A DNA stretch of 64,000 nt, from assembly GCF_006345805.1 (NCBI RefSeq), contig NC_042998.1, forward strand, positions 61,442,001-61,506,000. Reading direction: 5' to 3'. Of the stretch, positions 15,901 to 45,900 are shown piece by piece. How positions within the stretch are numbered: the first letter of the stretch is position 1; the number at the start of each line of letters is the position of its first letter. The stretch is from Octopus sinensis (lineage: Eukaryota). The notes beneath the pieces were generated by a model, which did no database searches, was not told the DNA's origin, and saw only the letters and a list, made by a program, of their open reading frames with translations. A program made the translations under genes and the position numbers.

Positions 15901-18900
15901 GTGCAAGTTGGTTTGGTGACAATGATGATAATTCTTTGTTTATTATTTGCTGTGATCTTGTATGTGGTTCGCATGGCTTTGGTTCAGTTTCGTTTGTAAC
16001 CATGTTAGCCGTTTAATATCTTTTGTGCAACACTTACAAATATGTTATTCAAACACTACAGCTCACATAACCTCTTCATATTGTTCTGCAGGTTATAGAC
16101 TATTTCAGTTATATGTTTATCCCTTGTCCTGTTGTTTTCTTGAGGAGTAATCACTGAGTAAAGCAGCAGTTTGCCTCCATCTCTTTATGCACGTGAACAC
16201 TTCTCATTTAGAAATTACATTTGGTTGAAAACAACAATTCTTTTTATCTTTAGGCTCGCATGCTTGGACAGGATGTTGGTAGGTAGCTTTTGCCACTGTA
16301 TTTGCAAGCTGTTGTATGGTATATTAACGACATCAATTCATGAGAGGGTGAGGTGTAATGGGTTAGTAGCTCTGGTTGTCATGGGTTAGCAGCCAGATCT
16401 AAGGATATTGCTAATATACCATAACTTCCGGACAATAGTGATAGCTACAAAGTTTAGGTTGCATGGACCTGTGACAACCAGTTATTAAATTATCTATTTA
16501 TCTACCTAGAGAAAGAAAGGGGGAATGGAAATCAAATTGATGGATAGAGAGAGATATTTATAATGAAAGAGAGAGTCAGAGATAAAAGGGAAGATGCCGA
16601 TATTCAATATTTATAAATGTATTGTCAATGAAATAATATCAACAAGTCTGATTCAACTTACAAGGCTTCTAAACTGCTAAGATTTTGGAATGTTCCTATT
16701 TCAATACTCATGATTTCATTGTTATCCAGATGTCTGAAACATTAAAAAATGCCCATAAGAAATGGTATCGAGCAAATTTGTGATAAAATATTACATATTA
16801 CGGATTAACGATTAGGTTTTGTATAAAATGAAGAAAAACTGTGATGCCTACAAGAAACAAAAAATCAGAATTAAAACTGACATAAATGCAAATACAAATG
16901 CCTGTTTCAAAACTATTGTATTTATCAATAACGAGTAGTTAATTGTACCATAGCATTTTAAAACTTGCAGTGCCTTAATATTTTCTTGCTTGTTGATTTA
17001 AAATTTTCTGTATCATATTATCTATGTGTGAAATTTTGTAGGTTATTTATCAAACACTATTTTATAAAGACAACGAATAGTTAATAGGTGAGAAATCTAG
17101 TTTAATGTCGGATGTACAAAATCATAGTTTTACTGATTACTCCTGTGGATTATGGTAATGAGTAACAACATCTGACTTATGGTGGATGACATAACTCAGT
17201 GTGGAACGTATTATTTTCCTTCTATGTGTATATGTACATCTGTATATTTGGGTTCCAGTACATAGGTGTGTAGTCATCTTGTATGTCGATGTAAAGACTT
17301 GGATGAAATTCGAAATTATTTCCTCATTTAGACACTGTAGTTACACAATTACATACGCACGTAGAGGGAGAGGGAGAGAGAGAAAGAAATATACATGTGC
17401 CTGTTTGTGTGCGTATAGTGTGTGTATTTAAACAAACACACATATGCATATACATATATGCATATATATATATATATCTCTGTGTGTGTGTGTGTGTATG
17501 TATGTATTCATCACATACACATATACATATATGCATATATATGTGTGTGTGTATTCATATACACATGCTGCACATACATAATGAGTTAAATGCAAAACAG
17601 CTGAAAGTACTAATAGAATAACATGACCTTAAATAAGTCAATGACAATGATACGCTATTACAAATTCCTTCAACTTACTGACATTACAGAGTCCTGGAAT
17701 CATGAAATCCAAAATGTAATTTGAAAGATGATAAGGATGCCACTTTTAATATCTGACTCATATGTCCATTCCATTCTGATATAAGTTGAGTTAGCAAGCT
17801 AATACAAGACAGAATTATCATTAAAATCAAAGAAATTGTCCAGCTTGTCCCATAAAGTCTCACCATGCTATCAGATGACATATACTATAAAAATACTTTC
17901 AACTCAACATTGATAACTTTTAGTCTTCTATTTCATTTATATTGCTAAATAAGGTTTTAAGTTTTGCTTTAAAATAATACACAATGTCAAGAAGGAAATT
18001 AATACCATAATGGCTGAAAGGAAGATTTTAATAAAATTCAACAGGAGTCACTGGAAGCGGAAGGCAAGAGTGGTTCCTCCTACACAGTTCAGGTTACTCT
18101 ATTGATCAGACTGTTTATTACATAATTTAAAAGCTAAAAAATAATACAAATACATCTTGATTTCTTCTTAATCAATATTTAAGTAACAAGAGAAAAAGAG
18201 AATTAAAATCTAATTTGAATAATACTCAACCTATGATCATTAACGACTACACCTTTATAATAGATATGGAGATAATAATACAAGAAAATGCCCTAATTGT
18301 GATCAAGAGAGCATGGTTCATATAGTAAAGAAATACATCTAAAAGACAAATACAAAAAGAATAGGGAGAACTACTATAACTAGTAGTAAAAGAAACTTAA
18401 ATACTGTCAAGTGTAAATAATCAATATCGGTAGCATTATGACTGCATCCATTTATTGCGATAACTCTAATATATTCCACACCTATTCAATGTAAAAACAA
18501 TTGTTAATGATAATTTTAATGTTAAAGATATAGAGTTATCTTTAATGTGCTATAACTGTATCATATGACAGAGGTATTGTCGACCAGAAACTATAATGAA
18601 TCACTATGATAGATCTTAATTAAATTATTTGCAGCAATTAAAATACTTCACAAGGAATAATTACTAAAAAAATCTAATACTAAAAGAAACATAACTTGGT
18701 ATAACACTCCTAACACTAAGAACGTAAAATGAAACATTCCAAAGTTTTCTTCTTGGTATACTAAAGAAACTCTTTCCACTGAAACATAAATATCACAGCA
18801 TCATTGCATTGATATATTTACGGTGAAATTCTCATTTTTAACTAGACCTCACCTATCTGATAACACTGGCTTCTCCTATATATCAAACATTTAGAAATAC

Positions 18901-42900: not shown

Positions 42901-45900
42901 ATGCATAAACACGATTCAGTAAATTCTTTCTTTGCTATATTATATAAAAAAAACAGAGCAACCATACATGTGGTGTATCTAAGTTTCTTTTTACCTCAAT
43001 AAATCATGTGTGTTGTGAAAATACACCATGTGAAAAGAAGTTCTCAGAATCAATTAGCATTTGAATTTGTGGGAAAGTATTAATAATGATGATGTACTTC
43101 ATTGTTTTGACTCTTGCTGTTCTCCCTGTGCCCGATGATTTCTTGTCAATATATTTATAGTTTACAGTAAAGATGCCTGGCTCAGTGGTTAGAGCGTCAA
43201 GCTTATAATCGTGAGGTTGTGAGTTCAAATCCCGGACCGAGCTGCGTGTTGTGTTCTTGAGCAAGATATTTTATTTCATGTTGATCCAGTTCACTCAGCT
43301 GTAGAAATGAGTTTTGACGTCACAGGTGCCAAGCTGTATCAGCCTTTGCCTTTCCCATGAATGACACTGGTGGCATGGAGATGGTAGGCCGGTATGCATG
43401 GGCGACTGCTGGTCTTCCATAAACAACCTTGCCGTGTCTTGTGCCTGGGCGGGTGACTTTCTAGGTGCAATTCCATGGTCAGTTATGATCAAAAGGAGTC
43501 AGTAACAGTAACCCAGCCATGTCTGTAAAGAGTATATTATCAACAAGCAGAACCCATGAATATTTCACGGAATTAATGGCAAACTTATTGGGTTATTTCT
43601 GAAAACTTAATTCAAAATCCTGAAAGCGTAGCCAGTGTTGTGTCTGTATGGTAAGATAGTTGCTCATCTGGTACTCATTGAAAAGTGAAAGAAATTGGAA
43701 TACAATGATTACTTAATGTACTTTATATATACACTCTTAATACTTTATGCACAGTTTTGTAGAATTAATACATAACACTCATGAAATATATATTCACTCT
43801 TATTTTTCTATTTTCCTATAAGCAAAAAAGTATATACTGTACATATGTTACAACCTTTAGTGAAAAAATTAGTTCAGTTAAAAAAATACACTTTTCACTA
43901 TCCACCACCTCCCTTTCCACCACCACCACAGTCTATTTTCCCTATCTCACTCAGTACTAAATGTGGGAAAGTGGTTGTACGAGTGGTAGAAGTAGTAGTA
44001 GTGGAAGTTGTAGTGGTAATAGTAGTTTTGTTAGATGTCATCTTTTCTCTCTCACAGTATTTGGTTATGAAAGTTGTCTCTTTGCTGATGCTTTGCTGTT
44101 GTGTTGTGCAGTTGGTAAGTTGATGTAAGAATATTGTAAAATTTGGTTGTTTCTTAGTGGTACTTATGCTTATATATTACCCATTTGCCTAAATGTCGGT
44201 ATTTCAATTGGTGATCTATGTAAAATCATGCATTTTCTTAAGGACACCCCAATTTGCACTGTGTAGGTTTGTTCACATCCTGAGCTTGTAACTTCTTACA
44301 TAAAGTTTTCAGATGCACAGGTGAAATTATTTACGATTGTGAAAAGAAGTTCAAAGAAGTTCCATCTTTGAACTTCTTTCCTTTAGCATCTCAAATGTAA
44401 GATCTCTTCCCTGAAGACAGACAATCGTCTCATCCTATGATGGAATCAATCTACAAACATTTTTGTGGACTACCAAGCCCCCAGAAACAGCCATTAGATT
44501 TGTAATACTTTTCTTCAACTCCTTGACTCTATATATCATTTGTATTCTATGTACGTCGGACTTTTTTATATGCATACATATATACATTTTTGTATTTCAT
44601 GTATTTAATGTACTTTATATATTGATCTGTCTAACTTGCTTATCCATAAATTTGCTTATATGTATTTGTGTGTATGTATGTATGCATGTATGTGTGTGAA
44701 GGCATAGAGTAAGAGAAAGATTGCTACAAAGAATCAACCACGATGTGACTTATTTAGCGAGACAGTGTGGTAATTATCCCTGAATATATAGTTATTCAAA
44801 CTATCAAATATAGCAGCCAACTTACAAGGCTGACCCAACTTACAAGATTTCCAAACTGGGAAGGTTATGAAAAGATCCTTCTCCAATGACCGTGATTTCA
44901 TTATTATCCAAATGTCTGAAACAAAAAAATATTTGTCAGAAATCATATCGAGCAAATTTGTGATAAAACGTTAGATTGGAGCCATTGCAGTGTAAAGAGA
45001 GAAAGACCCCAAATGGTACACAGGCCACAACAAACAGAGGGAATATTCTTGAAGCCAATAATTTGCACTTATGGAGACAATATTTACATATCACATGAGG
45101 AAACACAACTAGGAGTCATAATGCAGGGAAACAGTTGCATGAACAAGTACTTAATGCTTGGAGAACTACGTTTCATAGAAACAATAGTACTGATTGAAAA
45201 TAATGTCCAACAATACTCCTTGTGATTGACTCTAAATTTTTTCAATTATATATATATATATATATACAGTGTACATTTAAACACATAAGAGATGGCCTTA
45301 ACAGGACATCTGACTAGCTAGAAGGAGTAGTTAAACTCCAAACCACTATCAGGGGTAATTTTGAAAGGAAATGAAAAATAAAATCATTTACCCTCTATTT
45401 ACTATACTATGGTTTCAAGCTATACTTTATTAAATAAAATAATTTACCTTGGCGAAGCTATCGTCAGTAGGAAAGCCAAGATTAACATATAATGATGAGG
45501 CGATACAGAACACTCCACATGTTTACATCTTATAAATTTTCAAAATCCACTGCTCAAGCGCAGTTTTCTATCGACAGCAAACACAAAATATGCCGATTTT
45601 CTTCCAAAATTAGCCAAAAAATATCATTATTAATAAATTCCAGGGTAATGATATAATGATTTTTTGGCTAATTTTGGAAGAAAATCGCCATTTTTTGTAT
45701 TTGCTGCAGATAAAAAACCGCCCTTGCGCAGTGGTTTTGAAAAATTATAACATGTAAACACGAGACATAATAATAATAATAATAATAATAATAATTGTGT
45801 ACAGTGCTCAGGTGCACTACAACTCATCTAAAGTGTATATATAATCAGGTGTAGTTTCGGTGGATTTCGGAAAGCATGAGGGCCTTAAAAGATGCAGTGT

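Follow-up and report, generated by a model that had tools for sequence, protein, structure and literature searches.

We analyzed a 64-kb window of Octopus sinensis DNA (the whole stretch of 64,000 nucleotides, contig NC_042998.1, positions 61,442,001 to 61,506,000, which carries no N) by scanning for exons of the form AG-72 nt-GT that encode a leucine-rich repeat (LRR) pattern. This splice-site scan returned 21 matches of 72 nt, comprising 20 minus-strand LRR exons and a single plus-strand match, which sits within a LINE-like ORF and was dropped. All 20 LRR exons have a CAG acceptor and a GT donor, are 72 nt long in phase 2 and encode one LRR each, so the reading frame survives any rearrangement of such exons. 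Named by first residue (position 1, the class residue), the array reads D W S Y H W S Y H W S Y H W S Y H Y S N and is followed by an LRR C-terminal cap exon (Table 1). The remaining gene lies to the left of the window, which yielded no exon for a signal peptide/LRRNT. The surrounding sequence is animal DNA with many microsatellites and retroelement ORFs.

Table 1. Exons, blocks, junctions and mobile-element features of the window, in order of position.
Feature	Position	Strand	Description
Cap exon	757..914	-	LRR C-terminal cap (DLRHND...QCE)
e17 to e20	3358..16733	-	e20 N 3358, e19 S 6141, e18 Y 11896, e17 H 16662
Block A	17414-29169		11.7 kb
e16	19765-19836	-	Y, in block A
A-only insertion	19988-26213		6.2 kb, flanked by TA microsatellites, with LINE-like ORFs and a pair of 134-bp inverted repeats
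e15	26363-26434	-	S, in block A
e14	28067-28138	-	W, in block A
Block X	29170-37075		7.9 kb, single copy, no counterpart in second copy
e10 to e13	in block X	-	e13 H 32790, e12 Y 33819, e11 S 34599, e10 W 36628
Block B	37076/37097-38385		
e09	37990-38061	-	H, in block B
Junction B-A'	38386..38460		TA-rich, with ~55-bp (CAT)n-headed piece
Block A'	38461-43952		5.5 kb, copy of A
e08	40565-40636	-	Y, in block A'
e07	40922-40993	-	S, in block A'
e06	42701-42772	-	W, in block A'
Junction A'-B'	43928..43952		~25 bp imperfect pyrimidine-rich overlap common to A end and B start
Block B'	43928/43951-45230		Copy of B
e05	44844-44915	-	H, in block B'
Inverted-repeat element	45247..48972		268-bp terminal inverted repeats, in a TA run 17 bp beyond B' end, intron e04-e05
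Old module 1	49735..51218	-	e04 Y 49735-49806, e03 S 50116-50187, e02 W 51147-51218
e01	51587..51658	-	D type, first LRR exon

A profile search identified the gene covering the array as LOC115224769 of O. sinensis (P0001, 1566 aa), whose LRRs are matched by 20/20 window exons in the same order. P0001 carries LRR, GPS and 7tm_2 domains, with a long ectodomain of adhesion-type domains (20 LRRs plus caps), and on these predicted domains LOC115224769 is an LRR adhesion GPCR. The GPS motif precedes the 7TM region (PF01825 at 1113-1156 of P0001, E=3.9e-13, above the cut-off; encoded outside the window) and contains an H-L-T motif, which we take to be the cleavage site; autoproteolysis is here a prediction. 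The PF00002 match of P0001 covers profile positions 79-250 only, as against 6-250 in the O. bimaculoides orthologue, and the O. sinensis model is 73 residues short in the 7TM region, the corresponding DNA being outside the window. Given this gap, and since the O. vulgaris model stops early, the signalling half of the receptor may be damaged or mis-modelled. The closest solved LRR relatives are LRRC15 and IGFALS.

The O. bimaculoides orthologue (P0121, a chromosome-scale gene model) matches P0001 at 487/604 residues after the LRRs and falls in the same 90% cluster as A0A0L8FLR8/Ocbimv22014869m. In the account of Ritschard et al. (2019; PMC6408891), the latter is a class B receptor in group 3 of an octopus-specific adhesion GPCR expansion and the member that carries a Death domain; its expression is concentrated in skin (0.71), with sucker second (0.17; tau 0.96), and LRRs are noted in 5 of 22 sequences. 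These passages do not deal with copy number, periodicity or the structure of the exons. Most paralogues in our searches have fewer LRRs and no W-S-Y-H period, unlike LOC115224769.

The period of four exceeds chance, even without the young copies described below. Among the 12 old exons, similarity at lag 4 gave p=0.0002, and all other lags gave p>0.5. A tree built from exons with their flanks also shows the period, with bootstrap values of 99 for the W class and 97 for the Y class and weak values for S and H. Exon e18 (Y) departs from the W-S-Y-H pattern, and does so in both O. sinensis and O. bimaculoides.

Self-BLAST and alignments resolved most of the array into the block order A-X-B-A'-B' along the window. 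As the original prediction had it, A' is a copy of A, B' is a copy of B, and A' abuts B' directly, whereas A and B are kept apart by block X, whose 7.9 kb (about 8 kb had been predicted) hold the four expected H, Y, S and W exons at 32790, 33819, 34599 and 36628. A is longer than A' mainly through the 6.2-kb insertion listed in Table 1; smaller indels are ~100 bp present in A only and ~160 bp present in A' only.

The predicted net gain of one H-W-S-Y set is borne out by this block structure and by the O. bimaculoides orthologue, which is without the extra set: P0121 has 17 LRRs in the order D W D S Y H W S Y H W S Y H Y S N. Repeats b08-b16 of O. bimaculoides each find their best match in e11-e19 or in young copies of those exons. 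P0121 repeats 7-16 correspond to e10-e19 and come after an H, which places X between B and A ancestrally; with the order B-X-A in O. bimaculoides, a later insertion of X was ruled out. Taking the automatic gene model as the outgroup state, the O. sinensis line is the one that gained the additional H-W-S-Y. The array of O. bimaculoides has in turn an extra D-type, off-register exon, third in order and near the N-terminus, and the window shows no remnant of it. The five orthologue pairs at the N-terminal end are also more diverged (13-17/24) than the other ten (18-22/24), one pair with an indel being excluded. Protein searches returned, among the matches listed, no O. vulgaris model of the LRR array; the O. 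vulgaris model P0139 begins after the LRRs.

The reading that we consider somewhat probable is that of a real rearrangement within the array of the LRR ectodomain, together with the account of the register given below. Once the O. sinensis and O. bimaculoides lines had separated, an array of 16 exons would have grown to 20, either by tandem duplication of the eight-exon A-X-B segment followed by loss of X from one copy via short imperfect homology, or in a single replication event in which the template switched twice. Both routes had been put forward in the original prediction, and equal divergence and outgroup order fit either; the two are inseparable here, and whether one or two events took place cannot be told. 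Substitutions number 254/5147 (4.9%) between A and A' and 60/1280 (4.7%) between B and B' (Fisher p=0.77), mean values that would fit one duplication with subsequent loss of X as well as one template-switch event. Divergence is patchy along the copies (P about 0.001): counts per 600 columns span 8 to 53, and close to the W exon 212 bp in a row are identical. This patchiness suggests later conversion or mixed donors and weakens the single-age argument.

At the B-A' junction both ends lie within TA-rich tracts, and the ~55-bp piece between them matches a retroelement end at 22251-22299 and is absent from both parent flanks. Introns of the same class keep some homology close to the exons (scores of 125 against a null maximum of 55, and 155 against 77), and a match near the B-A' junction is of low complexity (82 against 76). 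Long-homology recombination at the junctions was unsupported, the collinear stretches of same-class introns stopping 140-480 bp or more before the breakpoints; since the breakpoints lie outside this homology, there is no demonstration that it dictates the register.

The original prediction further held that arrays should differ between species by multiples of four. This stands for the periodic core, which gained exactly four exons, and fails for the array as a whole, where the one full species comparison gives 20 versus 17 exons, a difference of three because O. bimaculoides has its extra D-type exon. This is the kind of species difference that the original prediction had named as its refutation, and a strict multiples-of-four rule is not supported. 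As for the selection on register proposed alongside it, two class-matched junctions would arise by chance with P=0.0625 under uniform placement, or 0.087 when weighted by intron length, with two of the lengths estimated by hand after removal of young insertions. A tally of rearrangements gives three in-register among four to five events (p=0.05-0.10). The periods of paralogues, judged by eye, range from 1 to 4, and isoform models of one paralogue measure 477, 501 and 525 aa, one repeat apart.

The class residue itself is conserved. Across the three old modules, position 1 shows 0 replacement changes at 31 sites against 6 silent changes at 5 sites (counted over 12 within-class pairs, which are non-independent), and it differs in 0/15 orthologue pairs. 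The neighbouring exposed positions 4, 6, 22 and 23 have a pN of 0.45, compared with 0.00 at position 1. At the level of these codon counts, position 1 is shown to be under purifying selection, part of which may concern splicing, as the codon adjoins the splice acceptor. From the LxxLxLxxN consensus we take position 1 to be an exposed beta-strand site on the concave face. The young exon pairs, over 288 nt, differ by 8 replacement and 3 silent changes; 0/8 replacements fall on the nine constrained positions (P=0.02, for positions chosen after seeing the data), and both young copies look constrained by this comparison. When the two copies are compared, however, exon conservation (11/288) does not significantly exceed that of introns (p=0.48).

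We propose that, beyond the frame, the feature kept is the W-S-Y-H order of the exposed beta-strand residue. Four adjacent strands may form one surface patch, and gains of a whole patch in register would then be favoured over gains out of register. We conclude that the W-S-Y-H stripe matters, probably as a four-strand surface patch, and in-register gains appear to be mildly favoured, a preference that would act in the core, with single-exon changes tolerated at the array edges. The absence of replacements at the class residue favours mild selection on the pattern, and selection on register is plausible and weaker than first proposed. In a more specific version, which we regard as rather doubtful, each W-S-Y-H set would be one of a series of binding patches along the concave face that fit a ligand with a period of its own. 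Selection would hold the core in register, and avidity would be tuned by differences in module number (12, 16 or 20 exons) among individuals or closely related species. Candidate ligands for a skin- and sucker-expressed receptor of this kind would be a matrix, glycan or microbial polymer.

Several other explanations bear on the origin of the A'-B' segment. It may have come from a second, related gene copy, or from an old allele already without X, and been joined by unequal crossover, in which case the 5% divergence would date the copies and not the joining. We consider this unlikely. In its favour, O. sinensis has a further, near-identical model (LOC118768034, P0166), which matches P0001 at 58/64 N-terminal and 54/58 cap residues. 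Its cap is closer to that of O. vulgaris P0139 (57/58) than to that of P0001, indicating another copy of comparable age that could have been the donor of A'-B'. The distance between P0166 and P0001 also about equals the 8 replacements in 92 codons seen between the duplicated exons, and the patchy divergence would suit such a donor. However, the P0166 model is without LRR exons, and this origin calls for a second locus on top of the two junctions that are required in any case. An artefact of assembly, in which a 16-exon haplotype and a 12-exon haplotype without X were joined in one contig, would be expected to look just like A-X-B followed by A'-B'. The copies, however, differ by ~5%, about 14 times the O. 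sinensis heterozygosity of 0.34% (a secondary citation, in PMC12564688), and by private insertions of several kilobases, and the B-A' junction is gap-free, with its own 55-bp insert and no long repeat to mislead an overlap, which makes mis-assembly very unlikely.

Two alternatives to a mild preference concern the register. If selection were strict, copy number would change, and segregate, in units of four only. The gain of exactly four in the core, the invariant class residue and breakpoints placed where homology does not obviously force the register speak for this, but the overall count of 20 versus 17, the off-pattern e18 in both species, and the variable periods and one-repeat isoform steps of the paralogues make it distinctly improbable. 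At the other extreme, the register may have been kept by chance or by a bias in junction placement, the period being a mere record of past block duplications. The probability of 0.06-0.09 calculated above leaves room for this, the more so with ascertainment, as only arrays that keep a period get noticed; same-class introns retain some homology, the ends at B-A' are TA-rich, and all repeats share the same core, so that any order should fold. It leaves unexplained, however, why position 1 is conserved like the buried core while positions 4, 6, 22 and 23 vary, and we think it improbable to a still greater degree than strict selection. If chance alone kept the register, the locus would be a case of ordinary intragenic duplication.

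Growth of repeat arrays by multi-domain blocks is already known (Bjorklund et al., 2006; PMC1553488), and LOC115224769 is a clean further instance. As in the nebulin super-repeat described there, several domains are gained per expansion step and a block (here of four exons) repeats as a unit; similarity in the array also peaks at a fixed lag, as expected of a fixed-unit super-repeat. In contrast to nebulin, where the unit is mainly of seven domains and exon borders lie inside domains, one exon here equals one repeat; and unlike the fixed unit of nebulin-type arrays, the unit was not strictly kept (20 versus 17), and two junctions were needed for the latest gain. The same source states that exact breakpoints of repeat-protein expansions are rarely recoverable. 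LOC115224769 is a single gene in which the two junctions can be seen together with the outgroup state and the residue under selection, which makes selected versus inherited register testable across octopod genomes.

Template switching of the FoSTeS/MMBIR type produces complex duplication-deletion rearrangements. The array resembles their products in having two junctions, one with short imperfect homology and the other with a short insert, and differs in that its copies are ~5% diverged and one event is indistinguishable from two. The Ectocarpus ROCO genes (Zambounis et al., 2012; PMC3341825) likewise encode one 24-aa LRR per 72-nt exon, in a candidate receptor family with fast turnover. As described in that study, ROCO arrays have undergone extensive recombination and carry LRR exons in their introns that are inactive or reversed, whereas the array here is periodic, and no spare, inactive or reversed LRR exons were detected on either strand of the window by splice scan, nucleotide self-BLAST or tblastn. 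A literature search for the exon array of LOC115224769, with most subscription papers and bioRxiv supplements outside its scope, found nothing. The receptor group to which the gene belongs is orphan and octopus-specific; its orthologue is expressed in skin and suckers, and its conserved period-4 surface stripe hints at a ligand.

Sequencing runs were also compared with the segment at 37900-44930. The result, which hints that A'-type sequence is common to relatives, is not counted as evidence here, as genome-wide repeats inflate the shares and a paralogue is indistinguishable from an allele; within the window, 1569/7001 31-mers (0.22) of the segment occur elsewhere. Part of the segment occurs in 20 of the 24 runs listed, with no RNA run listed among them. 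The best runs contain 0.63 and 0.54 of its words and come from one sample, possibly the assembly's own source, and runs from two organisms (B and C) contain 0.38 and 0.36 of the sampled words.

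The zones in which the duplicate blocks A and A' diverge little or strongly are possibly gene-conversion tracts, and the W exons of the two blocks, e06 in A' and e14 in A, are identical. The extra exon of P0121, the O. bimaculoides orthologue of the O. sinensis receptor P0001, encodes its repeat 3. The start of this repeat resembles the D exon, and its best overall match is the W exon e02 (15/24); the exon looks like a chimera.

The element with terminal inverted repeats contains LINE-like ORFs, and its ends are presumably Tc1/mariner-like. Its interior (45843-47335) has an inverted match at 56748-58239 (95.6%). 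In addition, one of the two young LINE copies sits in the insertion found only in A.

Features of the window, with positions counted within it
Feature	Position	Detail
Zones of low and high A/A' divergence	38969-39563, 42250-43172, 40819-41427	1-2% (low), 9% (high)
Element in a TA run	45247-48972	268-bp terminal inverted repeats
Young LINE copies	23117-24293, 55449-56625	97.6% identity
RT-like open frame	22808-24946	712 aa

The receptor's signalling half, which lies outside the window, may be undergoing decay or be mis-annotated. Compared with P0121, the P0001 model is 73 residues short where the 7TM begins, around residues 1156-1157. The P0001 tail is a 12-aa tandem repeat with no match to the Death domain, and the O. 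vulgaris model P0139 stops inside the 7TM.

P0001 also has a Cys-rich domain C-terminal to the LRR cap (residues ~605-685), ending in CCxxxxCN. This domain has no match in Pfam; we take it to be similar to the Ly6/uPAR three-finger domain.

A near-identical second copy exists in O. sinensis (P0166, LOC118768034), modelled without LRRs, the LRR cap exon directly following the N-terminal exon. Finally, the P0133, P0136, P0140, P0142 and P0143 cluster comprises paralogous octopus LRR receptors with other repeat periods (approximately 2, 3 and 4), including isoform models that lie one 24-aa repeat apart.
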